DNA from: a virus
UHGV virus genome: UHGV-1746862
DNA length: 13,572 nt
Strand: one strand, 5' to 3'
Shown one piece after another: positions 145-13,572 of the stretch (the first letter of the stretch is position 1; the number at the start of each line of letters is the position of its first letter). The notes below the pieces were generated by a model. The model saw nothing but the letters and a program-made list of their open reading frames with translations. It made no database searches and was not told the origin of the DNA. The position numbers were made by a program, and so were the translations under genes.

Positions 145-223
145 TTGACTCTTTGAGTATGGTTATCTAGTATTTGCATCAGACGGGCAATCAAGCCCAC
201 TTCCTAAACTGGAGAATCTAAAA
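145..223 (+). promoter_or_regulatory. Putative sigma70-like promoter plus conserved translation-initiation region upstream of a micro-ORF
   Basis: TTGACT (145-150), 17-bp spacer, TAGTAT (168-173); A/T tract upstream (113-140); weak stem GGGC/GCCC 185-198; then CCTAAACTGGAGAATCTAAAAATG, the same initiation region as the downstream cassettes. Confidence 0.4.
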
Positions 224-298
224 ATGCTGTACAGTCGCGAATTGATGGTTACAACTAACGTTAACACAAAAGCAAAACGTTTTTACATGCAAATCTGA
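224..298 (+). CDS. Micro-ORF, 24 aa (MLYSRELMVTTNVNTKAKRFYMQI); hypothetical small peptide or decayed gene remnant
   Basis: ATG at 224 placed exactly as in the other cassette-driven genes (GGAG 9 nt upstream); ends TGA 296-298; below the ORF-track length cutoff. Confidence 0.25.
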   Translation: MLYSRELMVTTNVNTKAKRFYMQI

Positions 299-430
299 GG
301 CGTATGGTCCAGAATATCAGAAGCTGACTATTGCAACTATGTAGAAACAGCTATAAACTCTAATTGCTACCTTACAAGAAATACAAGAAAGTACATAAGA
401 CAGACAGCAGTTTATTACTACAATATCTAA

Positions 431-519
431 TAAAGTACTTTACAAGGGGCTTATAGTTCGATAAAGTAAGCCCCAGATAAAGAACTTTACCACTAAATCC
501 TAAATTGGAGAACTTAAAA
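431..519 (+). promoter_or_regulatory. Type A cassette: promoter-like TTTACA-N17-TAAAGT overlapping a GC-clamped stem-loop, plus conserved RBS
   Basis: TTTACA 439-444; TAAAGT 462-467; stem GGGGCTTA 446-453 / TAAGCCCC 467-474; GGAG 507-510; nearly identical to the copy at 2488-2576. Confidence 0.55.
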
Positions 520-813
520 ATGGCTATTATCAAAAACGTTGTAATTACTGCAAAGACTCGTGATGACGCTCGCGTTATGGCTAAAAAGTTATGCGGGAAA
601 GTGGTTGACAATGGAAAACAATCTGCTGTAAGGTGGGGCGTGAAGGTTGATAAACAGTTGAAGTTAAAAAATTCACCGATAAACCTTTTTACATGTGTAA
701 ACACTATCGGGAAGACAAATGTATACACGAAAAAGGCATACATTAGACGCGTAGCATTAACATCCCCCATTCGTACAATGAGAAGTTATGCAAAGCTGAA
801 AATTAACAAATAA
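520..813 (+). CDS. Hypothetical small basic protein (97 aa)
   Basis: ATG at 520 with GGAG at cassette spacing. The ORF track's 505 start is an in-frame TTG inside the RBS and is rejected. Stop TAA 811-813 immediately followed by the next cassette. Confidence 0.7.
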   Translation: MAIIKNVVITAKTRDDARVMAKKLCGKVVDNGKQSAVRWGVKVDKQLKLKNSPINLFTCVNTIGKTNVYTKKAYIRRVALTSPIRTMRSYAKLKINK

Positions 814-900
814 AGTACTTTACAGGGGGCTTAAAAGTTGATATCTTAAGCCCCAGATAAAGAGCTTTACCACTCAATCCTTAAACTAGGAGATTCAAAA
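811..900 (+). promoter_or_regulatory. Type A cassette (variant stem)
   Basis: TTTACA 819-824; TATCTT 842-847; stem GGGGCTTAA 826-834 / TTAAGCCCC 846-854; CTAGGAGATTCAAAA then ATG at 901. Confidence 0.55.
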
Positions 901-1413
901 ATGAAAACTGTAGACGCTACCTTTGAAGTTGTAAAAGAAAAATTCACCATTATTTACGAAGCTGTCAATTGTTATGAAGCAAGCCATAATCTTGATAATT
1001 GGAAGTTTACAGATGACCATCAAGGCGGCGTGACTGTTAAAAATCCTAACTGTCAGCGTAATGAATTTAAATATGCAATCCCTTTACATTACAGCCTTAA
1101 ACAGCTTTCAAGTGACTATGCAAAACAAGGCCGTGAGAATCCATCGAAAGAGGCTTACACGAGCTTACAGAAAGAACTAGAAAGAGATTTAGAGGCTTCA
1201 GAGTATAACCTTGCCGCGAAAGTTGTGGATGCAAACGGTAGCACGGTTTTAGAAAGTTTTTATCTTGGTTATGCTTTCGATTGGTGCTATCGTGACGGCG
1301 ATGATTTAGAGGATAGACTAAAAGAAGAGGTGAACAACGCAGACGCAGAATCTGAAGTATTAGAACGTTTGGAATCGTTGAAAGACTCAGTGATGAATAT
1401 CTTTAAGAACTAA
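901..1413 (+). CDS. Hypothetical acidic protein (170 aa)
   Basis: ORF with cassette RBS; stop TAA 1411-1413 abuts the next cassette; no recognisable motif. Confidence 0.75.
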   Translation: MKTVDATFEVVKEKFTIIYEAVNCYEASHNLDNWKFTDDHQGGVTVKNPNCQRNEFKYAIPLHYSLKQLSSDYAKQGRENPSKEAYTSLQKELERDLEASEYNLAAKVVDANGSTVLESFYLGYAFDWCYRDGDDLEDRLKEEVNNADAESEVLERLESLKDSVMNIFKN

Positions 1414-1505
1414 ATAGATTTCTTTACACGGGGTTATCAGACTGATAAGATAGCCCCAGATAAAGAGCTTTATTCAAATCAACCCTTAAACTAGGAGATT
1501 CTAAA
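1411..1505 (+). promoter_or_regulatory. Type A cassette (divergent stem with compensatory changes)
   Basis: TTTACA 1423-1428; TAAGAT 1446-1451; stem-loop GGGGTTATCAGACTGATAAGATAGCCCC 1430-1456; CTAGGAGATTCTAAA then ATG at 1506. Confidence 0.5.
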
Positions 1506-1802
1506 ATGAAATTATCAAATAAAGTCCGTGAAAATTTAAGCAAGTTACTTAATAAAATTGATTTCATTGAAACATCAAGGAATAGTCATGATGTTATGGA
1601 ATGGTTACACGGAAAAATCAAAGGCCGTCGTGTAGTGATTTGCTTATGGAACAGTTGCAGGGAGTATAAAAAACCTGTATTGCAAGTCAATATTTATGAT
1701 GATACTTTTAAAAGTCCTGTAAAGTCTAAAAGCGATTTATTAGAATCCTATGAGATAACTGTAAATGGCAAAGTATCACGTAAAGAGGAAACACCATGTT
1801 AA
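1506..1802 (+). CDS. Hypothetical protein (98 aa)
   Basis: ORF with cassette RBS; its stop TAA 1800-1802 overlaps the next start (ATGTTAA). Confidence 0.7.
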   Translation: MKLSNKVRENLSKLLNKIDFIETSRNSHDVMEWLHGKIKGRRVVICLWNSCREYKKPVLQVNIYDDTFKSPVKSKSDLLESYEITVNGKVSRKEETPC

Positions 1803-2128
1803 TGACTGGTATCACTGCAATCATTGTCATTTTCGCGCTATATAAGGCATATAAAGCCTATAATCTGGCAAGTAAGGCAATCACACAACAGGTTAATAAT
1901 AACCTTGTAATGAGCTTTCTAGAGCGTTTAAGTGATGAACAATTAAAACGGCTAGAAATGAGCTTTAGATTCAGGGCGAGAACTTATCAAATCAGTGACA
2001 TTTTCAAAGATAATTTTCAATTAGTCGATGATTATAATTCTCTGATAAATGCTTTAAATATTAGTGACTTAAAAGATTATCACGCTGTAATTGTTCAAGA
2101 ATTGAGCAAACGAAAACAAAACTGTTGA
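1796..2128 (+). CDS. Hypothetical small membrane-anchored protein (110 aa), one N-terminal hydrophobic helix
   Basis: Translationally coupled to the upstream gene; GAGGA 7 nt upstream of ATG 1796; residues 3-17 (MTGITAIIVIFALYK) hydrophobic. Confidence 0.65.
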   Translation: MLMTGITAIIVIFALYKAYKAYNLASKAITQQVNNNLVMSFLERLSDEQLKRLEMSFRFRARTYQISDIFKDNFQLVDDYNSLINALNISDLKDYHAVIVQELSKRKQNC

Positions 2129-2217
2129 CACTGATTTTTAGATAGATTAAATTACACATCAACGGGGAGGCAATAACCTCCCTACTAAATAAAGTCCTTA
2201 AACTAGGAGATTCAAAA
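2125..2217 (+). promoter_or_regulatory. Type B cassette: TTGACA-N17-TAAATT promoter, 5'-proximal GGGGAGG/CCTCCC stem-loop, conserved RBS
   Basis: TTGACA 2125-2130 overlaps the upstream stop TGA 2126-2128; TAAATT 2148-2153; stem 2164-2182; CTAGGAGATTCAAAA then ATG at 2218. Confidence 0.6.
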
Positions 2218-2490
2218 ATGTATACTACTAACAACGGTCGTACTTTAAATGTCACTCTACGTCACTATGTTGATGGTGTAATGTGCTTTGATGATTTACA
2301 AGCTGAGCAACACATCTTAGATTGGCAAGTAGCAGGACTCCAAAAAACTGCTACCGGATACGGGAAAAAGATTCCAACTAGCTGGAAAGTACACTATGAA
2401 GGCCGTTTGCGCAGAATTTATCAAGATGTGCAAAGCAATAGCGCATCGAGTTACATTATAGTAAAAGGCAAAAAACTGCATTTAATGTAA
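2218..2490 (+). CDS. Hypothetical protein (90 aa)
   Basis: ORF with cassette RBS; stop TAA 2488-2490 abuts a type A cassette. Confidence 0.7.
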   Translation: MYTTNNGRTLNVTLRHYVDGVMCFDDLQAEQHILDWQVAGLQKTATGYGKKIPTSWKVHYEGRLRRIYQDVQSNSASSYIIVKGKKLHLM

Positions 2491-2576
2491 AGTACTTTAC
2501 AAGGGGCTTATAGTTCGATAAAGTAAGCCCCAGATAAAGAGCTTTACCACTAAATCCTAAATTGGAGAACTTAAAA
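2488..2576 (+). promoter_or_regulatory. Type A cassette, near-identical copy of 431-519
   Basis: TTTACA 2496-2501; stem-loop 2503-2531; same RBS; about 1 mismatch per 100 nt against 431-519, identity extending into the first codons (ATGGCTATTA). Confidence 0.55.
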
Positions 2577-2981
2577 ATGGCTATTAATAACCGTGAATTA
2601 TCAATTTTAAAAGCACGTTTGACCGTTAACCGGATTAATGTTATCACGTCATCAGCACCAGATGAAACACTGCAAAACATTATTGGGAAGATTCAAAGTG
2701 TTATCTTAGACGTTGAAAGCGTAAAAAATTCATTGGCTGACGTTGCAGCAGGTATCACACTAGACGGTGCGCAATATGAAATGTCCGACATGTTAGGCAA
2801 ATCTAAGGTAATGAATAAAGAGTTAGATTTGAAAATGTTCCGATTTGCTGTTAAAGTGTGGCTATCTGTCGAGTATGATGCTAACTTTGCAATCGCTGAC
2901 TTTTTCGCCACTTGGTTGCAGCGTAATTTGACTAATCATGACTTCCGCGATATCTGGGATGCAATTTATGCAGAACTCTAA
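2577..2981 (+). CDS. Hypothetical protein (134 aa)
   Basis: ATG at 2577 with cassette RBS; the track's 2562 start is an in-frame TTG inside the RBS and is rejected. Confidence 0.7.
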   Translation: MAINNRELSILKARLTVNRINVITSSAPDETLQNIIGKIQSVILDVESVKNSLADVAAGITLDGAQYEMSDMLGKSKVMNKELDLKMFRFAVKVWLSVEYDANFAIADFFATWLQRNLTNHDFRDIWDAIYAEL

Positions 2982-2990
2982 AAAATTTTG

Positions 2991-3085
2991 TTGACACTGG
3001 TTTTTAGATAGATTAAATTACACATCAACGGGGAGGGAATGACCTTCCCCACTAAGTAAAGTCCTTAAACTAGGAGATTCAAAAA
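2991..3085 (+). promoter_or_regulatory. Type B cassette
   Basis: TTGACA 2991-2996; TAAATT 3014-3019; stem GGGGAGGG 3030-3037 / CCTTCCCC 3043-3050; CTAGGAGATTCAAAAA then ATG at 3086. Confidence 0.6.
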
Positions 3086-3289
3086 ATGGCTATTATTAAT
3101 GATTTAACCATTGAAACTACACACATCAAAGATATCAAAGTTGGCGATATAGTCCTTTCCCACGGCGTAGAAAAAACTGTCACTGCAAAGGATATCAAAG
3201 AGGATTCTTTCATGGGTAGGACTCTCTTCGGTGATTCTTATTGCTTAGGCTATCTTGCAGTTTTAAAAGTTGTCAAAAATAACAAATAA
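3086..3289 (+). CDS. Hypothetical protein (67 aa)
   Basis: ORF with cassette RBS; starts MAII like the gene at 520. Confidence 0.65.
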   Translation: MAIINDLTIETTHIKDIKVGDIVLSHGVEKTVTAKDIKEDSFMGRTLFGDSYCLGYLAVLKVVKNNK

Positions 3290-3375
3290 AGTACTTTACA
3301 AGGGGCTTAAAAGTTGATAACTTAAGCCCCAGATAAAGAGCTTTACCACTAAATCCTAAACTGGAGATTCTAAAA
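3287..3375 (+). promoter_or_regulatory. Type A cassette (stem variant as in 811-900)
   Basis: TTTACA 3295-3300; stem-loop 3302-3330; CTGGAGATTCTAAAA then ATG at 3376. Confidence 0.55.
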
Positions 3376-3624
3376 ATGATGAACTACTTTAACATTCCCG
3401 ATACCTGTAGATTATTGACACAAGAAGAAAATTTGGGTAAACCTTTCATTTACCACATGCCAGATAACACGGCAAAAACTTATAGTTACAATGTTAACCG
3501 TTTCACCGCATACGCTGCAAAGAACGGCTATAGGTTGGTTACTCAAAAAGTAATGCTGGTTACAACTGCTGGCGAGATTCCTACAGTTGCAGTCAAACTA
3601 GTTTTCTCAAAGAAAGTTAAATAA
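3376..3624 (+). CDS. Hypothetical protein (82 aa)
   Basis: ORF with cassette RBS; stop TAA 3622-3624 abuts the next cassette. Confidence 0.65.
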   Translation: MMNYFNIPDTCRLLTQEENLGKPFIYHMPDNTAKTYSYNVNRFTAYAAKNGYRLVTQKVMLVTTAGEIPTVAVKLVFSKKVK

Positions 3625-3709
3625 AGCACTTTACAAGGGGCTTATAGTTCGATAAAGTAAGCCCCAGATAAAGAGCTTTACCACTAAATCCTAAACTGGA
3701 GATTCAAAA
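3622..3709 (+). promoter_or_regulatory. Type A cassette
   Basis: TTTACA 3630-3635; stem-loop 3637-3665; CTGGAGATTCAAAA then ATG at 3710. Confidence 0.55.
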
Positions 3710-4252
3710 ATGAAATGCTATCACGGAACTACTCAAGAAAATTTCCTCAACCTGATTAATAACGGTGATAAACCATCAGGCGCATGGGATTGTTCGGATA
3801 TGGACGGCAATTTTTACGTGTATCCAGAAAATAAAATCTATGGCGACGATGATGAAGAGATAACATCGGAAGGTATTCAGCAAGCTCTAGGCAATGCCAC
3901 TATCACCGCAGCTTTTCAGATGAAGACTCAAAATATTGTTATCTTAGAACTCGATATTCCAGAGGATGAGCTAAACGATGATTATTCTTGTGATAATATG
4001 TCGAGTGTAGCAAGTTTTACAGAGTACTTTGATGTAAATTGGATTAAAAAGGTCTATACAACAGAGTTTAATGCTATGTATTCACCTTTTTGTCTTCCTT
4101 CATTGGATAACCCAAATTTAAACTATCTTGATGAGTCTCTGGAGCTTCTTGCTAAAAGTGTTCAACAGTCGGACAGTATTCAGGTTTTTTGTGACATCAT
4201 GGATACACTGACAGGAAACATTGCAGAAGAGGATTTAAAGAGCTTTTTCTAA
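3710..4252 (+). CDS. Hypothetical strongly acidic protein (180 aa)
   Basis: ORF with cassette RBS; many Asp/Glu runs (DDDEE, PEDELNDDY); followed by a terminator-like hairpin. Confidence 0.75.
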   Translation: MKCYHGTTQENFLNLINNGDKPSGAWDCSDMDGNFYVYPENKIYGDDDEEITSEGIQQALGNATITAAFQMKTQNIVILELDIPEDELNDDYSCDNMSSVASFTEYFDVNWIKKVYTTEFNAMYSPFCLPSLDNPNLNYLDESLELLAKSVQQSDSIQVFCDIMDTLTGNIAEEDLKSFF

Positions 4253-4284
4253 AAACCTATGCAATCACCTTATAAACACTAATC

Positions 4285-4304
4285 AGCCCCTTGTAGGGGC
4301 TTTT
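4285..4304 (+). terminator. Putative intrinsic terminator (short T-tail)
   Basis: AGCCCC 4285-4290, loop TTGTA, GGGGCT 4296-4301, then TTTT. Confidence 0.45.
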
Positions 4305-4318
4305 AGAGGGCTTAAATC

Positions 4319-4552
4319 ATGCTTACAACCATTTACCTCATCCTTTCCATCTGTAATGGTCATTCATGTGATTTTAAAGGGCTTGAAGAGTTTACAGGAA
4401 GTAAAGAAAATGCTATTCAAGTTTGCCAGATAGCAAGACAAGACTATCCCGCTAGTGATGATATACAATGTTACTTTAAGACAGAAGATGAAGACGGTAT
4501 CTATTTTGACAGCGTAGATGGTCAGTATGAAATTATCATTGAAAAAGACTAG
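4319..4552 (+). CDS. Hypothetical small protein (77 aa) with hydrophobic, Cys-containing N-terminus
   Basis: ATG at 4319 with weak AGAGGG upstream; the only gene of the array without a cassette; N-terminus MLTTIYLILSICNGHSC. Confidence 0.5.
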   Translation: MLTTIYLILSICNGHSCDFKGLEEFTGSKENAIQVCQIARQDYPASDDIQCYFKTEDEDGIYFDSVDGQYEIIIEKD

Positions 4553-4643
4553 ACAAGCCTGATAAAAATCTGTAAATTGTCAATCAACGGGGAGGGAATG
4601 ACCTTCCCCACTAAGTACAATCCTTAAACTAGGAGATTCAAAA
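4550..4643 (+). promoter_or_regulatory. Type B cassette
   Basis: TAGACA 4550-4555 overlaps stop TAG 4550-4552; TAAATT 4573-4578; stem 4589-4609; CTAGGAGATTCAAAA then ATG at 4644. Confidence 0.55.
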
Positions 4644-4985
4644 ATGGCTTATGTAACCGTAATTACCGATAAAGAAAATTCATCTTGGTCAACTCAAGTA
4701 AGTGATAAGATGTCACCTATGCAGTGCCTAAAATACTTTGAACAGTGGAACAAAGGCGAGGACACAAGCCCCTTTCAAGTGATGCAGATTATCCATGTAG
4801 ATAACGAAGGGAATAAAACGGTTTTAAATAGTGAGTACTACGCAAGCCTTTTTGAAACGAGAAGTAAAACAATGAAGCTTTTACGTGAATCCGGTTATGC
4901 CCATATCGCCGCGTTAATCTGGGATGACCTGCTAAAAAACCAACGTATCAGCTATGTAAAACCTGAAAAAATATTCATCAGTTAA
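4644..4985 (+). CDS. Hypothetical protein (113 aa)
   Basis: ORF with cassette RBS. Confidence 0.7.
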   Translation: MAYVTVITDKENSSWSTQVSDKMSPMQCLKYFEQWNKGEDTSPFQVMQIIHVDNEGNKTVLNSEYYASLFETRSKTMKLLRESGYAHIAALIWDDLLKNQRISYVKPEKIFIS

Positions 4986-5018
4986 TCAATAACTTACAAA
5001 AAACTTTTAAAAAAAATG

Positions 5019-5047
5019 TTGACAATACCCCTTGACATTGGTAACTT
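5019..5047 (+). promoter_or_regulatory. Additional promoter-like element with tandem TTGACA hexamers and upstream A-tract
   Basis: A-run 5004-5016; TTGACA 5019-5024 and again 5032-5037; TAACTT 5042-5047 at 17-bp spacing from the first hexamer. Confidence 0.35.
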
Positions 5048-5115
5048 TGTTCGAGGGGGTTTATCTAAAAGGGATTCACTTAAAAGATTCTTTATAGATA
5101 AGCTCAAAAAATTAC

Positions 5116-5208
5116 TTGCAATCAGCTATCAAAACAAGTAAATTACTAATCAACGGGGAGGGAATGACCTTCCCCACTAAGTAAAATCCTTAAACTAGGA
5201 GAGTCAAA
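5116..5208 (+). promoter_or_regulatory. Type B cassette
   Basis: TTGCAA 5116-5121; TAAATT 5139-5144; stem GGGGAGGG 5155-5162 / CCTTCCCC 5168-5175; CTAGGAGAGTCAAA then ATG at 5209. Confidence 0.55.
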
Positions 5209-5739
5209 ATGAACAAGTTTAAAGCTATCAACTTCATTCGTTCAAATGCTGTAATGTCTAAGCCTGTAAAAGATACATATGAATTTCGTTGTAATGGGGT
5301 ACACTTTGCAACCATCACTAAGTCAGAAAACGGGGCTTATTATGTACATCGTCGTAATGTTGCAACCGTTGTAGTCTCTCACTTTATGCAAGCTGTAGCG
5401 GAATTATTACCGTTATTCTTAGAGATTTACTTAGATGAGTGTAAAAACGTTCACAACCACGTTAAAAACCTTTTAAACGGTTATAAAATGGCTTATGAAC
5501 GTTCTATCAAGTCACTAAACAAGTTTTACAATGCACCTGCAAATACTGTTTCAATGGCTTATGATGTAAACGGTGAGTTAGTTAGTCTCTTTAAAGTGGA
5601 AGAAATTAAACTGTATAATCTACGTCCTAGTGGTTACTCTAAGACTCTTGGTGAAGGTTTAACGTTCAATATCAAGAACTTAGAAAAAACTTTAAAAGAT
5701 ATTGAAAAAGATATTGACGAGACACTTAAAAGTCTGTAA
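5209..5739 (+). CDS. Hypothetical protein (176 aa)
   Basis: ORF with cassette RBS; its last codons and stop contain the promoter of the next cassette. Confidence 0.75.
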   Translation: MNKFKAINFIRSNAVMSKPVKDTYEFRCNGVHFATITKSENGAYYVHRRNVATVVVSHFMQAVAELLPLFLEIYLDECKNVHNHVKNLLNGYKMAYERSIKSLNKFYNAPANTVSMAYDVNGELVSLFKVEEIKLYNLRPSGYSKTLGEGLTFNIKNLEKTLKDIEKDIDETLKSL

Positions 5740-5806
5740 ATTGTCAATCAACGGGGAGGCGATAACCTCCCCACTAAATAAAACCCTTAAACTAGGAGAT
5801 TCAAAA
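5714..5806 (+). promoter_or_regulatory. Type B cassette, promoter embedded in the 3' end of the upstream gene
   Basis: TTGACG 5714-5719; TAAATT 5737-5742 overlaps stop TAA 5737-5739; stem GGGGAGG 5753-5759 / CCTCCCC 5766-5772; CTAGGAGATTCAAAA then ATG at 5807. Confidence 0.55.
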
Positions 5807-6055
5807 ATGGCAACTATCCGCGCTACTGTTAACGAGTTCGGTTTTTCCTCTCTGGATGTTAAATTTGACATTGCAGGCACTGATAACGCCTTTGAAATGG
5901 TGAAATGTCTTATCAGTCAGACCATCAAAGATTATAATCCTTCGGATGAGTTCTGGGAGGAAACAAAACAAGAAGTTCTCAAGGATGGTTATACTTATCA
6001 CTATTGGGGAGAAAAAATCGTCTCCCTGTACTACAACAAACAAGATTATAACTAA
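5807..6055 (+). CDS. Hypothetical protein (82 aa)
   Basis: ATG at 5807 with cassette RBS; the track's 5702 start is an in-frame extension running through the cassette and is rejected. Confidence 0.7.
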   Translation: MATIRATVNEFGFSSLDVKFDIAGTDNAFEMVKCLISQTIKDYNPSDEFWEETKQEVLKDGYTYHYWGEKIVSLYYNKQDYN

Positions 6056-6117: not shown

Positions 6118-6560
6118 ACGTCTATGTAATAGCCTCTATTCAATCCTTTTCCTTTCCTTTCCAGAATCTATCCCACTGATTCAATAGAATCTTATCAGAC
6201 CTTAAAAGCAATAACTCTATAGTCTACTCTATAACCTCTTATCAAATCAACTTAAATAAAAGCCAATAACCCCAGAAAGGGGATGGCCCATTTAAACGCT
6301 CTATAAAGCTCTATAACAGCCTTATCAACCTAACTTAAGGGATTGCATTACCTCACCCTAAAAAGCCCTTTATAAAGCTTCCCAGAGACTTAAAAGAATC
6401 TTATAAGGGTGTAAGCTTTATCATCTCATTAGTATTCTTGTGAATATCTAAACAACCCCTTGATAGTCACTAAAAAGTATGTTATAGGGGCTTTAAAGTT
6501 ACTTTGAAGTAGCTTAAAAGTTACGTAAAAGAGGCTATAAAGTTACGTAAATGCTAGCCC

Positions 6561-6661
6561 CCTTAACATTCTCTTAACAATTTCTTAACAATCCCTACAT
6601 AGTTATGCTTTTAAGGCACTTGTTAGCAACTTGTTAGTCCCTTGTTAAATCTCTGTTAAGA
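6561..6661. repeat. Head-to-head sub-array: three CTTAACA sites, then four TGTTA(G/A) sites in the opposite orientation, each set at exact 11-bp spacing
   Basis: TAACA cores start at 6564, 6575, 6586; TGTTA cores start at 6621, 6632, 6643, 6654. Confidence 0.7.
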
Positions 6662-6863
6662 CCACGTAAAAGCCTTGTAAGAGTCTTTGACATAGCCTTA
6701 AAAGCTCCTGTAAAGCCCTATAAAGAGCTATCTGTACAGTTGGGGGATAGATACTAGGAAGAGACTTAAAAGAGCTTACAAAGAGCTATAGAGAGCTTTT
6801 AAGAGGGCTATTTAGAGAATCACTAAGAGAGAAAGGGAACGATAAGACCAGAGATAGTGACCA

Positions 6864-7140
6864 TGTTAATAGCTTGTTAAAAAGATTAAACACTTGTTAG
6901 AAACTTGTTAATTATCTTAACAAAATAACTCTTTAAAATTAACTTGTTAGCTCTTGTTAATCATCTGTTAAGACTCTGTAAAGACTATTCAGCACTTGTT
7001 AGAAAACTGTTACAGCCTTGTTAGTTCTGTTAAGAAACTGTTAAGACCTTTGAAGAGTTGTTAAGAAGGTGTTAGAACTGTTAAGAGATTGTTAAGGATA
7101 TTTTAAAATTTTGCAAAGTACTTGTAAGGGAGCTGTTAAG
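6864..7140 (+). repeat. Tandem array of about 17 TGTTA(A)G-family sites, mostly phased at 9-11 bp
   Basis: TGTTA cores start at 6864, 6875, 6895, 6906, 6945, 6955, 6966, 6997, 7008, 7019, 7028, 7039, 7059, 7070, 7079, 7090, 7134; one inverted copy (CTTAACA) at 6916-6922. Confidence 0.7.
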
Positions 7141-7429
7141 GGCTACCAAGCAGATATACATCCTAATCAGATATTTTTGAGTTCCTTCAAAGACCCTAAA
7201 AAATGACTTGACAGTCCTATTTTATAAAAATTTTAAGATTCTGAATAATTACCTATACAGCCTTTTAAAAATACAGGTAATAACAGGCTTATAAGATACC
7301 TTGTTAGTACCGTGTTAGACCTTGTGAGATAAGGCCTGTAAAGATATTCCTGTTAAGTTTATTAAAACAGTCTATATAGAGGCTTAGTAATACCTAGTGA
7401 ACACCTATAGAGAGTATCATAGCTGACAT

Positions 7430-7635
7430 AGAGATTAAGAGGTGTATAGGAGCTTCTAAGAAGGTGTAGAGGGATGGTTAAGGTGATTGTATAGGTTGTT
7501 AAGAAGGCTTGTTAGAGGGCTTGTTAGAAGGGTTATACAGAGGGGCTATTAAGACCACTAGATAGTTACTAAGATACTATATAGTACTATATAACTATAT
7601 AGAGAGTAAGATTAAGAAGGTTGTTAAGAAGGATA
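7430..7635 (+). repeat. Cluster of longer motif variants ((C)TTGTTA(A)GAAGG, AAGGTGTAGAGG)
   Basis: TTGTTAAGAAGG at 7496-7507 and 7621-7632; CTTGTTAGAGGG at 7508-7519; CTTGTTAGAAGGG at 7520-7532; related GGTGTATAGG / AAGGTGTAGAGGG at 7440-7473. Confidence 0.55.
7575..7602. repeat. TATA-rich palindromic cluster
   Basis: Perfect 12-bp palindrome TACTATATAGTA at 7575-7586; three CTATATA(G) copies at 7577, 7587 and 7595. Confidence 0.6.
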
Positions 7636-7690: not shown

Positions 7691-7723
7691 TATAAAAGTA
7701 AAAAGCCCCCAATTAAGGAGGCT
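7691..7723 (-). terminator. Putative intrinsic terminator closing the leftward gene cluster
   Basis: On the minus strand, AGCCUCC-UUAAUU-GGGGGCU (7 bp stem with one G-U pair) followed by UUUUACUUUUAUA, just past stop TAA 7735-7737. Confidence 0.55.
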
Positions 7724-7734
7724 CTTAAGATATT

Positions 7735-9226: not shown

Positions 9227-9451
9227 CTACTCAGACTTTTCAGTCTTCTTATCGGATTTCTTACTAGTCTTCTTCTCAGCTTTCTGTTCAGGCTCCTTCT
9301 CAGAAGTTGCCTTGATAACCATATCAAGAAGCTCTGATAAGTCACTCTTCAGCAAAGTAACAGGCTGCTCGTTGTAGAAGTTTTTGTCAAGATAAACTTT
9401 GAACTCTTCTATAGAAGGAAATCCAAAAATTGGTACAGGTGTCTTAATCAT
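9227..9451 (-). CDS. Hypothetical small protein (74 aa) with Lys/Glu-rich C-terminal tail
   Basis: ORF with GGAGAG 8 nt upstream of ATG 9451; C-terminus EKEPEQKAEKKTSKKSDKKTEKSE. Confidence 0.6.
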   Translation of the reverse strand: MIKTPVPIFGFPSIEEFKVYLDKNFYNEQPVTLLKSDLSELLDMVIKATSEKEPEQKAEKKTSKKSDKKTEKSE

Positions 9452-9527
9452 TACTTAGTCTCTCCATAGGCATCTTTTAAGATTGCCTTGTTAATCATTT
9501 CAGCGATTGCAAAACGAACACATACAG

Positions 9528-10061
9528 CTATAATTGTAGGTTGCATTCTCTACTTACCTCTTCAAGTTTAACCTCAGAATCCTTAAGTCGTTTCTTATGA
9601 ACTCTGAACCTCATTAGTGAGATGATGATACCAGCTAAAGGAACAGCATACAAGTACCAAACATCATGTGCCTTTGCAGTAATCTGTGTAATGGTCAAGT
9701 CTTGAGCTATGTAGCTGATTGCTGATACGGCTAGTAATGTTGCTAAGAAGAAAACCAGTATCATAACAATATTCAGACAACCTCTGGCATGGTATTCATG
9801 CTTAATGCACTTATTCTTCTCTTCAACAACCCTGTTGTAGTCATTTGTAAAGTCTCTGTAGAAAGCTTTTAAGTATTCTTGAGTGTAGCCTTCAAAGCAA
9901 CCTGTGCCGTACCAATAATCACCACCAAAATGTGCTATGATACCTGTATCCCCATTTGGTTTGGTTACTCTTAGTGAAGTATGATGACCAGTCTTCTGAT
10001 AATCTATCTTGTATCTTTCTTCGTAAATCATTTCCCAACCCCTCTCAATCGTTTGTTCCAC
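9528..10061 (-). CDS. Hypothetical membrane protein (177 aa), soluble N-terminal part then two predicted TM helices and a charged C-terminus
   Basis: Hydrophobic segments IVMILVFFLATLLAVSAISYI and VWYLYAVPLAGIIISLM; alternative coupled start at 10031 (ATGA overlap with the upstream stop). Confidence 0.7.
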   Translation of the reverse strand: MEQTIERGWEMIYEERYKIDYQKTGHHTSLRVTKPNGDTGIIAHFGGDYWYGTGCFEGYTQEYLKAFYRDFTNDYNRVVEEKNKCIKHEYHARGCLNIVMILVFFLATLLAVSAISYIAQDLTITQITAKAHDVWYLYAVPLAGIIISLMRFRVHKKRLKDSEVKLEEVSRECNLQL

Positions 10062-10246
10062 TCAAGGTCAACAAGTCTTTGCAGGACTTTCCCTCTAGGT
10101 GTTACACCTTTTAAATCTGCATCGTAGCAACGGTAAAAGTCACCTTCAGCGTGTTTACCGTAGCATTTTCTGATATTCTGGCTCCTACGATACTGCTCTA
10201 ACAGGGAGAGTCTGTAGTAATCTTCAACTGTAGTTAACTTTTTCAT
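10028..10246 (-). CDS. Hypothetical small basic protein (72 aa)
   Basis: ORF with ATGA overlap to the upstream gene (10243-10246). Confidence 0.55.
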   Translation of the reverse strand: MKKLTTVEDYYRLSLLEQYRRSQNIRKCYGKHAEGDFYRCYDADLKGVTPRGKVLQRLVDLEWNKRLRGVGK

Positions 10247-10788
10247 TCTTTCACCATAGCGTTTCTGAACTGGCGTTGTGTTTCTCTTGTAATTTCGTTT
10301 GGAGTAAACCCTGCTTTTAGCATATCTCTGAAAAGAACTTCTAAATGGTTCCTCTCAATGATGTAAATAGCATTCTGAATAGCTGTTTTGCGCTCCTTCA
10401 GGTCACTACTAATCTCTTCGCACTTACTGGTAAGTTCTGTATCAACTTTCTTATAGACTGGCATAACATGTGCGTAGCAACCTTTATTAGTCTCCATGAA
10501 AAATTTAAAAGACTCTTCAGAGTCCTTTAGAGCAATCCCTATAAAGTTTTTGTAAGCACCTGTGAAAGATAAGGAATCAATCTCAGCAGTTGAGTATACA
10601 GTTCCTGCACACAGTCTTGCAGAAGTACTGAATGTGTGGTTTGGTGTTGTGTCAAAGTCTAAGTTCTTCAGTGGTCGGAAATAAACTGTACCATTGTGTG
10701 AGATGTGTGTTACAACAGCCTCAACACTCTTTGAAGGATTCTGTTTAACATACAAAATAATTTTATCGTGTTCTTTCACTTTAGCCAT
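10243..10788 (-). CDS. Hypothetical protein (181 aa)
   Basis: ORF with GGAGAG RBS upstream of ATG 10788. Confidence 0.7.
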   Translation of the reverse strand: MAKVKEHDKIILYVKQNPSKSVEAVVTHISHNGTVYFRPLKNLDFDTTPNHTFSTSARLCAGTVYSTAEIDSLSFTGAYKNFIGIALKDSEESFKFFMETNKGCYAHVMPVYKKVDTELTSKCEEISSDLKERKTAIQNAIYIIERNHLEVLFRDMLKAGFTPNEITRETQRQFRNAMVKE

Positions 10789-10802
10789 ATCTACTCTCCA
10801 GA

Positions 10803-10835
10803 AACTAAAAAGGGAACTACCTCTCGATAGCTCCC
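10803..10835 (-). terminator. Putative internal intrinsic terminator in the leftward cluster
   Basis: On the minus strand, GGGAGCU-loop-AGUUCCC (10812-10835) followed by UUUUUAG (10805-10811), which runs directly into the RBS of the gene starting at 10788. Confidence 0.45.
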
Positions 10836-10860
10836 ATCATAATCAATATTGTATACTCGG

Positions 10861-11442
10861 TCAAGAGTATTTTTTAGGCAGCAATGCACTGCGCTTGTTA
10901 CTCTCTTCACTCAATAGTGCAATGAAATCATCACTTTTACCTTTCCACGGGCTGAATGAAGGGATATGTTCGCGGATAGCCTCAATCACTGTTTTAAGTG
11001 CTGTGTTCTTCATCCACCAATCAGAATCTGCTGATGCTACCACGTAGTATCCACCGTCATCAGTTAAAATTGGCTCTGAAATACATGGTGAAATCAAAGT
11101 GGTGATGATTGAACCGTTGTTCATGTAGTATGTGCGCTTCATAACCTTTTCAAGAAGCTTGTGAAGGTCACCAAACAATGTTACAAGTTCTTTATGGTCA
11201 ATATCTTTTTCGAGACTAGCTCGATACTTCAAAAGTGCAGCATCAACTTCTCTGTCATTAAACTTGAAGTACTGGACTTCATCAACAAGGCAGACACTAA
11301 TGTTATTAACATTCATAGTCAGCTTGCAAACTTTTGCAGGAGAGTTGATATTTGGTTGAAAAAGTGCAATACACCCTTCAATATTTCCAAAATGTTGTAC
11401 CAGTGTTACTTGTGGAGTGATATTCTGTTGCTCTTCGGACAT
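10861..11442 (-). CDS. Hypothetical protein (193 aa)
   Basis: ORF; start overlaps the upstream stop (TAATG, shared nt 11442). Confidence 0.7.
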   Translation of the reverse strand: MSEEQQNITPQVTLVQHFGNIEGCIALFQPNINSPAKVCKLTMNVNNISVCLVDEVQYFKFNDREVDAALLKYRASLEKDIDHKELVTLFGDLHKLLEKVMKRTYYMNNGSIITTLISPCISEPILTDDGGYYVVASADSDWWMKNTALKTVIEAIREHIPSFSPWKGKSDDFIALLSEESNKRSALLPKKYS

Positions 11443-11786
11443 TACAGTTTCCTCATTAAATACTTTTTAAGTTGTGTGTTAGGTTTCTCAAAAACTTCTA
11501 TAGAAGATATCTTAACAGATTCACCACGCATACCAGTATGTTTGAATATGTAATACTCTAACATCCCTATGTACTTTGCTGGTAAGTCATGCTTGACATA
11601 CACCGTCACAGAATCTTCAAATTCAACGACCTTCGTACCATCTTTGTAGTTAAACTCTTTAGGATGGTTGTAGTTGTCTATGTCATACATTAAAAAGAGT
11701 CTTTTACGTTGTAAATCAAGCTTATTTGTTAAAGACTCTTTGATATCTGAGAAGTTTTTGTACACTGTGACATGGAGCTTACTCAT
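11442..11786 (-). CDS. Hypothetical protein (114 aa)
   Basis: ORF; 8-nt overlap with the upstream gene. Confidence 0.65.
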   Translation of the reverse strand: MSKLHVTVYKNFSDIKESLTNKLDLQRKRLFLMYDIDNYNHPKEFNYKDGTKVVEFEDSVTVYVKHDLPAKYIGMLEYYIFKHTGMRGESVKISSIEVFEKPNTQLKKYLMRKL

Positions 11787-12072
11787 CGTTAAACTCTCTG
11801 ACGAAGAAATAGTTGACTTTGTTATTACCTACCATAAGGTCAAAGCAGGTATTTTCAAAAGGTTTGTTGCAGGCATCATATGAAGTGTATGTATCAGCTA
11901 CTTGCTTAGTAGTGAGCTTTTTACTTGATGGATTTAAGAGGCCACCATACAGTTTCTTGATAGCCTCTTCTACAACAGACCAGATGATTTCGTCAGTAAT
12001 CTCTTCGTACAGGTCAAGTTCACGCTCTAGTGAGAAGTCACAAATAGGGAAAATAACCTGCACTTTACTCAT
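11779..12072 (-). CDS. Hypothetical protein (97 aa)
   Basis: ORF; TAATG overlap with the upstream gene at 12072. Confidence 0.65.
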   Translation of the reverse strand: MSKVQVIFPICDFSLERELDLYEEITDEIIWSVVEEAIKKLYGGLLNPSSKKLTTKQVADTYTSYDACNKPFENTCFDLMVGNNKVNYFFVREFNDE

Positions 12073-12470
12073 TAACGAATCACCTGTGAGACTTGAATTG
12101 CTTCAGTTACTGACAAGTCACCTACTTTCTCTTCTTTGATAAAAGTGAAGGTGAGTTCAACAGGTTCTTGCTCTTCTTGCTCAACTGGAACACCATTAAG
12201 CTCATCAAAGATTGATTGGGTTGTCCAGTCTTCACCACCATCTGGGTAGTGGATTGCGTAAAGAGGGAACTCTATATCAAACCAACCAAATACAGGACAA
12301 CCATCTTCATCATCTCGTACTCGATGAAGTGTGCTTCCAGACCCTGTAAACTGAAGGAATAAATCTCCGTTGCACTTGTATATTACTGCATCGGCAAAAC
12401 CTATATCTTCTCGACCATCATGACCAAACGTGTCAACTTTTACTTGGATATCTCTAACATCTTTATTCAT
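12072..12470 (-). CDS. Hypothetical strongly acidic protein (132 aa)
   Basis: ORF; 8-nt overlap with the upstream gene; Asp/Glu-rich (RDDEDG, EQEEQEP). Confidence 0.7.
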   Translation of the reverse strand: MNKDVRDIQVKVDTFGHDGREDIGFADAVIYKCNGDLFLQFTGSGSTLHRVRDDEDGCPVFGWFDIEFPLYAIHYPDGGEDWTTQSIFDELNGVPVEQEEQEPVELTFTFIKEEKVGDLSVTEAIQVSQVIR

Positions 12471-12861
12471 AAAAACCTCTCTCTGCTTGTTCGATTTTTG
12501 CTCTTAAAGTTTCGCAATGATGTAGATGGTAGTTAGCTTCTTGTTCATGTGTTGCTAACTGCCTTTCCAGAACAGTTTTATAGTAACCTGCAAGTTGCTC
12601 TTTTGTCAATGGGTGCTCTGAAATAATATCAAGTCCACTTTCGCCAAGAGGGTTGAATTGTCCATACTCATTGACATTGTAAGTCTCAAACTTGAACAGG
12701 CCATTGTTCACAGACTCAATAGGTGACAACTCAACAAGCTCTACAGTAAACCGTGTATATACCTTGTCACCTCTTGAAACCACATTGTTCCCGACAATGC
12801 GTACAAGCGAGCCATTACGAGTGTACTTAAAAGTTCCAAAGTCACTAGCCCAAAGTTTCAT
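12463..12861 (-). CDS. Hypothetical protein (132 aa)
   Basis: ORF with AGGAG 6 nt upstream of ATG 12861, directly downstream of the lysozyme terminator. Confidence 0.7.
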   Translation of the reverse strand: MKLWASDFGTFKYTRNGSLVRIVGNNVVSRGDKVYTRFTVELVELSPIESVNNGLFKFETYNVNEYGQFNPLGESGLDIISEHPLTKEQLAGYYKTVLERQLATHEQEANYHLHHCETLRAKIEQAERGFYE

Positions 12862-12876
12862 AGTTTTCTCCTTAGA

Positions 12877-12902
12877 AAATAAAAAAGGCTCCCGAAGGAG
12901 CC
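12877..12902 (-). terminator. Intrinsic terminator downstream of the lysozyme gene
   Basis: On the minus strand, GGCUCC-UUCG-GGAGCC (12887-12902) followed by a U-run (12877-12886). Confidence 0.65.
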
Positions 12903-12912
12903 TATGAAGATA

Positions 12913-13377
12913 TTACTTTGGGTATAAACTGTCAAGATAAATGTCAGCTTCCATTCTACGTCTGTTTTTCAGTCCGTTTGAAGTGACTTTCTTACCTTTG
13001 ACTGTAACCTTGTTCCACCACTGCATAGCTTCTGCACAACCTACCTTATCACCATCGTTGTGGCGCTTGATAAATGTGGAGTCCTGCATAGCTGTGATAC
13101 CAATGTTGTATGTTTCACTTACAAGTGCGTCAAACTCATTCTGAGAAGTTGGAACCTTGACGGCTTTGTTCACTGCTGCAACGAACTTTTCAACATCTGC
13201 GAGAAGATACTGTTCAGCTTGTTCAGCGGTAATCTTCATACCCATCTTAACAGGTTTACCAGCAATACGGATTGTCCCATACCCAATTGTGGGGATTCCA
13301 GCAGAATCTTCGTAAGCCTCAAGCTTAAGACCTTCAAAGAACTTAATAGCTTCTAATCCTTTTCTTGAGAGTTGCAT
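12913..13377 (-). CDS. Phage lysozyme / endolysin, glycoside hydrolase family 24 (T4 lysozyme / P22 gp19 type)
   Basis: Translation has the GH24 N-terminal catalytic signature EGLKLEAYEDSAGIPTIGYGT (Glu, Asp, Thr spaced as in T4 lysozyme E11/D20/T26) and downstream blocks (MKITAEQAEQYL, QNEFDALVSETYNIG, WWNK...GLKNRR) matching P22 gp19-like lysozymes from memory; AGGAGG RBS; no N-terminal hydrophobic segment. Confidence 0.9.
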   Translation of the reverse strand: MQLSRKGLEAIKFFEGLKLEAYEDSAGIPTIGYGTIRIAGKPVKMGMKITAEQAEQYLLADVEKFVAAVNKAVKVPTSQNEFDALVSETYNIGITAMQDSTFIKRHNDGDKVGCAEAMQWWNKVTVKGKKVTSNGLKNRRRMEADIYLDSLYPK

Positions 13378-13572
13378 TATGCCCCTCCTACTGGGTTAAC
13401 TGTAACTGTTGCCGCATTAGATGTTACAGAGCCACCTGCACCTGTTACAACGCAAGTGTATGAACCTGCATCTGCTGGCAGAGCACCAGACTTGCTATAG
13501 GTAGCATTTGTCGCTGAAGGAATGTCAGAGCCATCTTTCTTCCATTGGTAACCAGTTGCACCAGTTGCAGTA
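13377..13572 (-). CDS. 3' end of a gene truncated by the window edge; C-terminal Ig-like domain, probably a virion structural or decoration protein
   Basis: Open frame running out of the window; the translation ends ...YQWKKDGSDIPSATNATYSKSGALPADAGSYTCVVTGAGGSVTSNAATVTVNPVGGA, with the Y-x-C core and beta-strand pattern typical of Ig-like domains; stop TAA 13377-13379 overlaps the lysozyme ATG (TAATG). Confidence 0.6.
   Translation of the reverse strand, partial: TATGATGYQWKKDGSDIPSATNATYSKSGALPADAGSYTCVVTGAGGSVTSNAATVTVNPVGGA

Follow-up and report, generated by a model that had tools for sequence, protein, structure and literature searches.

The two-helix membrane protein downstream of a Felix O1-type endolysin is most likely a dispensable accessory protein, not the missing holin

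The stretch of viral DNA analysed here (the window; 13,572 nucleotides) is part of the genome of a Felixounavirus, that is, a Felix O1-like myovirus. The best explanation of its lysis genes, to which we assign a probability of roughly three in four, is that they are dispersed, that the holin is encoded outside the window and that a protein with two transmembrane (TM) helices, encoded 2.9 kb from the endolysin, is an accessory membrane protein with a function other than that of a holin. The initial annotation had proposed that either the lysis genes are scattered or the holin lies beyond the window; both are true, yet textbook for Felix O1-like phages.

A megablast search of the window against phage records returned 242 matching records, the best of them a Felixounavirus at 96% identity, and known Felixounavirus genomes share 88–96% DNA identity with it. 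The gene content and order of the Felix O1 lysis layout, known from Whichard 2010 and from how Moogle, Michonne, Mushroom and Meda are annotated, are identical in the window, with gp27 the eighth gene downstream of gp35, and its arrangement of Ig-like gene, endolysin and terminator, with no adjacent holin, is common to Felix O1, Bas63, Michonne and humlepung. Nothing material sets the window apart from Felix O1-type phages, of which it is an ordinary member; its rightward cluster of small genes shows mosaic differences from these relatives. Rfam and tRNA scans across the window gave no matches. The features on which the argument rests are as follows.

13377–13572, minus strand: 3′ end of the gene for an Ig-like virion ('tail') protein (Felix O1 gp36, Bas63 gp124)
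12913–13377, minus strand: soluble GH24 endolysin, 154 aa (Felix O1 gp35, LysO1 type; Bas63 orthologue gp123)
12886–12903, minus strand: strong Rho-independent terminator directly 3′ of the endolysin gene (Felix O1 t35)
10861–12861, minus strand: five unknown-function genes between two terminators (Felix O1 gp34–gp30), singly at 12463–12861, 12072–12470, 11779–12072, 11442–11786 and 10861–11442, placed by PHROG unknown-function families and synteny
10812–10835, minus strand: second terminator (Felix O1 t29), parting the endolysin-proximal genes from the membrane-protein segment
10243–10788 and 10028–10246, minus strand: two genes (181 aa and 72 aa) upstream of the membrane gene
9528–10031, minus strand: two-TM inner-membrane protein, 167 aa (Felix O1 gp27, Bas63 gp116, Michonne gp104; phrog_4343)
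9451–9546, minus strand: conserved 31-aa ORF with a hydrophobic N-terminal half (Bas63 gp115; phrog_6279)
9227–9451, minus strand: 74-aa gene (Bas63 gp114)
7701–7726, minus strand: terminator closing the leftward cluster

The product of 12913–13377 had been described as a GH24 lysozyme with neither an N-terminal signal nor an anchor, and the searches bear this out. It matches Pfam PF00959 (Phage_lysozyme; E = 3.9e-41, 140.7 bits, above the curated cut-off of 22.3) and PHROG phrog_7 (endolysin; E = 1e-56), and the catalytic motif E15-x8-D24-x5-T30 can be read in MQLSRKGLEAIKFFEGLKLEAYEDSAGIPTIGYGT. Its N-terminus contains no hydrophobic stretch, signal, SAR domain or anchor (the maximum 19-residue Kyte–Doolittle mean is 0.79). 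Because it lacks a signal or SAR domain, the enzyme is holin-dependent; soluble GH24 endolysins of Gram-negative phages need a holin, as in the lambda, P22 and T4 systems. The gene, part of the leftward '40-24' transcription unit, lies, as first described, between a structural gene and a terminator. Upstream, the translation of the Ig-like gene, whose homologues are annotated as tail or Ig-like proteins in relatives, ends in YTCVVTGAGGSVTSNAATVTVNPVGGA, and its stop codon, TAA, overlaps the ATG of the endolysin gene (TAATG) in a start/stop coupling. Downstream, the terminator hairpin (12903–12886) is identical to t35 in Table 2 of Whichard 2010, and a promoter-like TTGACA-17-TATCTT at 12935–12907 abuts it. 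The claim that no small membrane protein lies beside the endolysin also held: a TM scan found no TM-containing real ORF flanking the gene within the window, and the collinear Bas63 gp124–128, in which we looked for a canonical holin just past the window edge, include no TM protein. Further ORFs within the endolysin gene were rejected as genes because they are antisense to it.

Where the holin may lie instead is indicated by relatives. Whichard 2010 reported that Felix O1 has no holin–lysin cassette (PMC3185647), and the genome announcements of Moogle, Michonne and Meda describe scattered lysis genes; the dispersed arrangement is thus already known, published in 2010 and often restated since. 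In the Michonne annotation, gp57, which follows the tail fibres, is a putative holin, gp96 is the lysozyme and the spanins (gp138/139) adjoin rIIB. Homologues of this putative holin (Felix O1 gp79, Bas63 gp29) occur in 261 phage records, are more than 90% identical across genera and are often annotated as holin. The protein has 124 aa, one TM domain (TMD) and a periplasmic coiled-coil ectodomain, and therefore resembles an i-spanin topologically, with a weak Rz-like PHROG match (E = 0.0097). All close relatives that we examined carry its locus and the i-/o-spanin pair near rIIB, both of which fall outside the 13.6-kb window. On the basis of topology and of fitness cost in a pooled screen, gp79/gp29 is the best candidate for the actual holin, although it could serve another late function.

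We propose that the soluble muramidase is made from the '40-24' unit in translational coupling with the virion Ig-like gene, and so would need a separately encoded, large-hole holin. That holin would be the single-TMD protein ending the tail-fibre operon (gp79 of Felix O1, gp29 of Bas63 and gp57 of Michonne), encoded 30 kb or more away from the endolysin and possibly acting with the small hydrophobic gp78/gp28 just upstream; the spanin pair would lie near rIIB, about 2–3 kb past the left window edge. Phage T4 offers a parallel, as its lysis genes are unlinked (t for the holin, e for the endolysin and pseT.3/pseT.2 for the spanins) and T is a class III holin. Unlinked lysis genes and rIIA/rIIB are common to T4 and Felix O1-type phages. 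The t gene follows gene 38, much as gp79/gp29 closes the run of tail-fibre genes, and T likewise combines one TMD with a periplasmic C-terminal domain. However, T has no detectable similarity to gp29, the 124-aa putative holin with its coiled-coil ectodomain, and the window itself carries only the endolysin.

The two-TM gene shares its strand and large transcription unit with the endolysin, but seven genes and two terminators stand between them. None of the five genes at 10861–12861 (0 of 5) encodes a TM helix. A promoter-like TTGACC-17-TATGAT at 10864–10836 abuts the second terminator, and the stop of the 72-aa gene overlaps the membrane gene start (ATGA). The initial annotation had placed this gene at 9528–10061, which needs correction: the ATG at 10031 is preceded by a GAGG Shine–Dalgarno sequence, takes part in the ATGA overlap and agrees with the 167-aa family profile, making the true coding sequence 9528–10031. 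Because translation starts there and not at GTG 10061, the soluble N-terminal domain comprises about 85 residues, down from about 95. The protein had also been presented as the only holin-like candidate of the leftward cluster. It is otherwise the only TM protein there, but the 31-aa ORF had been missed; this ORF overlaps the last 19 nt of the membrane gene, is conserved in three genera and has substitutions biased to third positions. A further ORF with two hydrophobic segments (372–770, minus strand) was rejected as a gene because it runs antisense to a rightward gene preceded by a cassette.

Both TM helices and the charged C-terminus described at the outset are real. The N-terminal domain is followed by TM1 (residues ~86–108; Kyte–Doolittle hydropathy 2.7), a short periplasmic loop, TM2 (~124–143; 1.6) and a mixed-charge tail (6 K/R, 5 D/E), and both helices and the tail are kept in all homologues, down to 24–30% identity. 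A topology check predicted N-in/C-in, which fits flanks of net positive charge and a neutral or negative loop. Identity between genera is 59% in the N-terminal domain, 56% in the tail, 42% in TM2 and 22% in TM1; conservation is therefore concentrated in the parts predicted to be cytoplasmic, not in the TM helices. Searches with the protein found nothing in Pfam at E ≤ 0.1 apart from noise, no holin family in PHROGs, NCBIfam or PADLOC (only PHROG 4343, 'unknown function'), and nothing below E = 0.08 among PDB sequences in a profile search (a weak GpsB match); its Michonne homologue, gp104, was left as hypothetical. A first AlphaFold model built from 11 sequences was unusable (pLDDT 57), and a Foldseek search of the PDB gave nothing at E ≤ 0.001; the 85-aa N-terminal domain was modelled as a beta/alpha fold of a four-strand sheet and a helix. 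Deep homology searches of 5.8 billion proteins recovered only 13 and then 28 clusters, and 1.84 billion representatives yielded 5 matches; all are Ounavirinae-like. One distant homologue, P0016, is on a 1.3-kb contig, the context of which adds little because it is simply collinear.

Fitness data for an orthologue are available from PhageMaP, a published pooled knock-out screen in Bas63 that reports fitness as betaML in three replicates; overnight lysis of the pool permits trans-complementation, and two holins may be redundant. Bas63 gp116 is 90% identical to the two-TM protein, and its score, which derives from a single insertion variant, was +1.06/+0.91/+0.84 on MG1655, where the endolysin gp123 scored −0.86/−0.53/−0.77, gp29 −1.54/−1.70/−1.43 and gp28 −0.75/−0.73/−0.58. 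On DH10B, gp29 scored −1.6 to −1.9 and gp28 −1.4 to −1.8, and gp116 reached +0.5 to +0.7 on a third K-12 sheet. Across the three K-12 hosts, gp116 ranged from +0.5 to +1.1, compared with −0.5 to −1.2 for the endolysin. On S17-1, disruption of gp116 was mildly deleterious (−0.1 to −0.2, where neutral genes score about +0.5 to +1), gp114 showed a similar S17-1-specific shift, and the authors of the screen speculate on a lysis-related role for gp116. Published RT-PCR timing for Felix O1 is noisy, and we gave it no weight because gp27 was not in the tested set and capsid genes fell into the 'early' class.

Our best guess is that the two-TM protein is an accessory, host-conditional inner-membrane factor. 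It would form a lineage-restricted N-in/C-in hairpin with the cytoplasmic N-terminal domain and C-terminal tail as its functional surfaces, and may anchor a cytoplasmic interaction domain at the membrane as a non-essential factor for host interaction, superinfection exclusion or counter-defence on particular hosts. T4 Imm-type proteins are likewise small, non-essential inner-membrane hairpins encoded amid accessory genes, but this likeness is an analogy only: the two-TM protein has no sequence or fold similarity to Imm, and its conserved part is instead the cytoplasmic domain.

A role in lysis short of being the main holin is possible but rather unlikely. The protein would then be an antiholin, a timing regulator or a second, host-conditional holin, its cytoplasmic domain acting on the true holin or the envelope, perhaps jointly with the 31-aa ORF that overlaps its gene and the adjacent 74-aa gene. 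The predicted topology, which holds the conserved domains at the cytoplasmic face of the membrane, is consistent with such a role, as are the loss of fitness of gp116 and gp114 specifically on S17-1 and the presence of rIIA/rIIB, a hint of lysis control as in T4. The 74-aa gene, moreover, adjoins the membrane gene even in the most distant homologous contig; however, the retained pair may mirror overall collinearity, because the next gene is also collinear. No likeness to known antiholins was found, the S17-1 effect is small and comes from a single variant, and many other functions would explain a neutral knock-out just as well. We consider it unlikely that gp116, gp115 and gp114 (the two-TM protein, the 31-aa ORF and the 74-aa neighbour) together form an envelope module required only on certain hosts, such as carriers of RP4-type conjugation, where it might help lysis conditionally, serve as a second holin or counteract a membrane-acting exclusion mechanism.

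That the two-TM protein is itself the holin, as the initial annotation implied, we judge very improbable. In that case it would form holes much as a class II holin does, in N-in/C-in topology and with an extra N-terminal regulatory domain, and would free the endolysin encoded 3 kb upstream; its two conserved helices and charged tail, the strand and transcription unit shared with the endolysin and, the 31-aa ORF aside, its position as the sole TM protein among real leftward-cluster genes all speak for this. Class II holins such as S21 of phage 21 have two TMDs, an N-in/C-in topology and about 70 aa (about 65–95 for the type). The two-TM protein shares with them the two helices, the predicted topology and a charged cytoplasmic tail, but at 167 aa it is more than twice as large and includes a conserved 85-aa cytoplasmic domain, with the TM helices its least conserved parts. 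It matches no holin family and lacks a dual-start motif, having a single ATG and a GTG 10 codons upstream inside the preceding gene. The gene adjoins neither endolysin nor spanins and sits in a separate, terminator-bounded segment, expert annotators assign the holin to another gene, and knock-out of the orthologue is neutral on three K-12 hosts, whereas loss of the endolysin is costly. We give almost no credence to an exit of the endolysin independent of any dedicated holin, by virion association or another export route, in which case there would be no holin to seek: translational coupling to the gene of a virion protein and the absence of an experimentally shown holin in any Felix O1-like phage speak for it, but gp36 was detected in virions and gp35 was absent from the virion proteins detected, the endolysin lacks a signal, an SAR domain and an anchor, enzymes of its kind depend on a holin, and gp28 and gp29 knock-outs cost at least as much as that of the endolysin on MG1655 and DH10B.

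Felix O1-type phages are in use for Salmonella diagnostics and biocontrol, and the lack of an experimentally established holin bars rational engineering of their lysis timing. On the dispersed layout, our re-examination contributes nothing new. It does narrow the search for the holin, as the published knock-out data favour the gp78/gp79 pair after the tail fibres (Bas63 gp28/gp29) and not the two-TM protein, which is left as an orphan membrane protein that may have a host-specific role.

The window belongs to a Felix O1-like phage. A megablast search with 9400-13572 matched 242 phage records, 204 of them with at least 80% query coverage; the top match was Felixounavirus LF82P3 (96% identical), and all well-covered matches were Ounavirinae with Escherichia, Salmonella, Shigella or Citrobacter hosts. 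Gene order is the same in the window, Felix O1, humlepung, XTG1, Bas63 and Michonne, and the leftward (minus-strand) cluster corresponds to Felix O1 genes 35 down to 24, within the '40-24' transcription unit. The features considered here are as follows.

200-5820, plus strand: cluster of small rightward genes
6143-7587: stretch of around 1.45 kb without an ORF of at least 40 aa
9451-9546, minus strand: 31-aa ORF (MQPTIIAVCVRFAIAEMINKAILKDAYGETK, phrog_6279)
9528-10031, minus strand: gene of the protein with two transmembrane (TM) segments, from its almost certain start
10861-11442, minus strand: orthologue of Bas63 gp118
12463-12861, minus strand: orthologue of Bas63 gp122
12903-12886: hairpin 3' of the endolysin gene
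12913-13377, minus strand: GH24 endolysin gene

The endolysin matched Pfam Phage_lysozyme (140.7 bits, E=3.9e-41) and the PHROG endolysin family, carries the motif E15-x8-D24-x5-T30 and has no hydrophobic segment (19-residue hydropathy peaks at 0.79). The endolysin ATG and the stop codon (TAA) of the gene upstream overlap as TAATG; the product of that upstream gene ends in an Ig-like domain, and its orthologue in Felix O1, gp36, belongs to the virion (Whichard et al. 2010, PMC3185647). The hairpin, 7 bp and GC-rich, precedes a T-run and matches Felix O1 terminator t35 exactly. No TM helix was found in the real ORFs adjoining the endolysin in the window, or in gp124-128 of the collinear Bas63, which are the five genes past the window edge. 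These results bear out the initial annotation, which had described an unanchored lysozyme flanked by a structural gene and a terminator, with no membrane protein beside it. A sigma-70-like promoter (TTGACA-17-TATCTT, within 12935-12886(-)) ends 0-3 nt ahead of this hairpin, and a second (TTGACC-17-TATGAT, within 10864-10812(-)) abuts another terminator hairpin (10836/10835). Transcripts begun there would start in the 5' arm and escape termination, and upstream transcripts would stop; the arrangement at two sites may be chance, because shuffled sequence contains at least as many promoter-like sites in total.

A better holin candidate sits outside the window. Whichard et al. (2010, PMC3185647) reported that Felix O1 is without a holin-lysin cassette and that, as in T4, the holin does not adjoin the lysin gp35; they listed gp79, gp116, gp118, gp119 and gp131 as holin candidates and tabulated gp27, the two-TM protein, as 'Membrane protein, 167 aa'. 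The absence of a holin beside the lysin is restated in further papers. Texas A&M annotations describe scattered lysis genes in Felix O1-like phages, where the lysozyme is soluble, the spanins are an i-/o- pair and the putative holin is of class III; in Michonne, that putative holin is gp57 (124 aa, immediately 3' of the tail-fibre genes), the spanins gp138/139 adjoin rIIB, and gp104, the two-TM homologue, is annotated as hypothetical. The initial annotation had proposed that lysis genes are dispersed or that the holin lies beyond the window, and by these sources both are true. By tblastn, the gp57 protein (gp79 in Felix O1, gp29 in Bas63) occurs in 261 phage records, at >90% identity across genera and frequently annotated as holin. 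The two-TM protein occurs in 253 records and is never so annotated. Felix O1 gp79 (53740-54096) lies 34.6 kb from gp35 (18691-19155). In Bas63, gp28-gp29 (6129-6694 of that genome) also lie outside the window: gp28 (65 aa, phrog_402), with a hydrophobic N-half and an acidic tail, is immediately upstream of gp29, whose layout of TMD and coiled-coil is i-spanin-like, and gp28 and gp29 may work together as holin and partner.

What the initial annotation observed was accurate, apart from the start codon of the two-TM protein and one overlooked ORF. The ORF 9528-10061 opens with a GTG lying within the preceding gene, and the true start is almost certainly ATG 10031, which is served by a GAGG Shine-Dalgarno sequence and overlaps the stop of the gene upstream as ATGA; the 167-position PHROG 4343 profile aligns to residues 11-177 of the longer product, and almost every homologue in the databases has 167-168 aa. 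Hydrophobic segments at ~86-108 (score 2.7) and ~124-143 (score 1.6) are kept throughout the homologues, even in one with 24-30% identity. Because charge is net positive before TM1 and after TM2, with a neutral or negative loop, an N-in/C-in topology is predicted. Identity between genera is higher in the N-domain (59%) and tail (56%) than in TM1 (22%), the loop (38%) or TM2 (42%), so selection is mainly on the cytoplasmic parts. In an AlphaFold model (22 sequences, pLDDT 71), residues 7-43 form a four-stranded sheet; a very long helix (51-110) then continues into TM1 and, after a tight turn, residues 114-162 form a helix running back.

The 31-aa ORF, which the initial annotation had overlooked, shares the last 19 nt of the two-TM gene. 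It is probably a real gene: Felixounavirus, Suspvirus and Mooglevirus all retain it, with substitutions biased towards third positions. It is absent from the most distant homologous contig. The overlap helps to explain the invariant ...ECNL terminus of the two-TM protein.

Bas63 (MZ501086) gene 0116 encodes a 90% identical orthologue, which was covered by the PhageMaP barcoded knock-out screen (bioRxiv 10.1101/2024.10.10.617714, supplementary data 2; betaML, three replicates each). Disruption of gp116 scored +1.06/+0.91/+0.84 on MG1655, +0.74/+0.52/+0.55 on the third K-12 sheet and -0.18/-0.11/-0.21 on S17, in pooled overnight infections with one gp116 insertion variant. The endolysin, gp123, showed an only moderate effect (-0.86/-0.53/-0.77, ~-0.95 and ~-1.1, respectively), and spanins scored positively. 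The putative holin gp29, labelled 'holin*', scored -1.54/-1.70/-1.43 on MG1655, -1.62/-1.93/-1.59 on DH10B and -0.35 to -0.48 on S17; disruption of gp28 was about as costly (-0.75/-0.73/-0.58, -1.83/-1.73/-1.43 and -0.47 to -0.74). Separately, gp118 and gp122 were strongly fitness-relevant, far more so than the endolysin, with scores of ~-2.4 to -2.9 on K-12 hosts (~-1.3 to -1.6 on S17) for gp118 and of -0.8 to -3.0 for gp122.

In our reading, the two-TM protein tethers a cytoplasmic interaction domain to the membrane and plays an accessory part that depends on the host. The PhageMaP authors found gp114 and gp116 conditionally more important on S17-1 and speculated about a lysis role tied to pili; we consider it unlikely that the protein regulates lysis. 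As a holin, the role for which the initial annotation named it the only candidate in the leftward cluster, it is not supported and highly improbable: even allowing for the pooled overnight infections, the single insertion variant and the moderate endolysin effect, a gene that can be lost on three K-12 hosts as neutrally as a tRNA gene is unlikely to be the sole holin.

Elsewhere in the window, the ORF-free gap separates the rightward and leftward clusters where they converge, near a peak in cumulative GC skew. The same gap occurs in Bas63, in Michonne and, flanked by genes 23 and 24, in Felix O1. No tRNA or Rfam match was found in it; its degenerate CTTGTTA(A/G)/TGTTAAGA repeats (6590-7105) may be an iteron-like, origin-like or protein-binding array. 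The rightward cluster is the mosaic portion of the genome. Upstream of many of its small genes lies a recurring cassette of 80-100 nt (4-7 copies per family), in which CTAGGAGATTCAAAAATG comes after a GC-rich hairpin (GGGGCTTA...TAAGCCCC or GGGGAGG...CCTCCCC). An ORF of 132 aa at 372-770(-), whose product would have two hydrophobic segments, runs antisense to a rightward gene with such a cassette and was judged spurious.

Dispersed lysis genes are thus a known trait of Felix O1-like phages, in print since 2010, which the present observation re-discovers; the identity of the holin in these phages is a modest, testable question.
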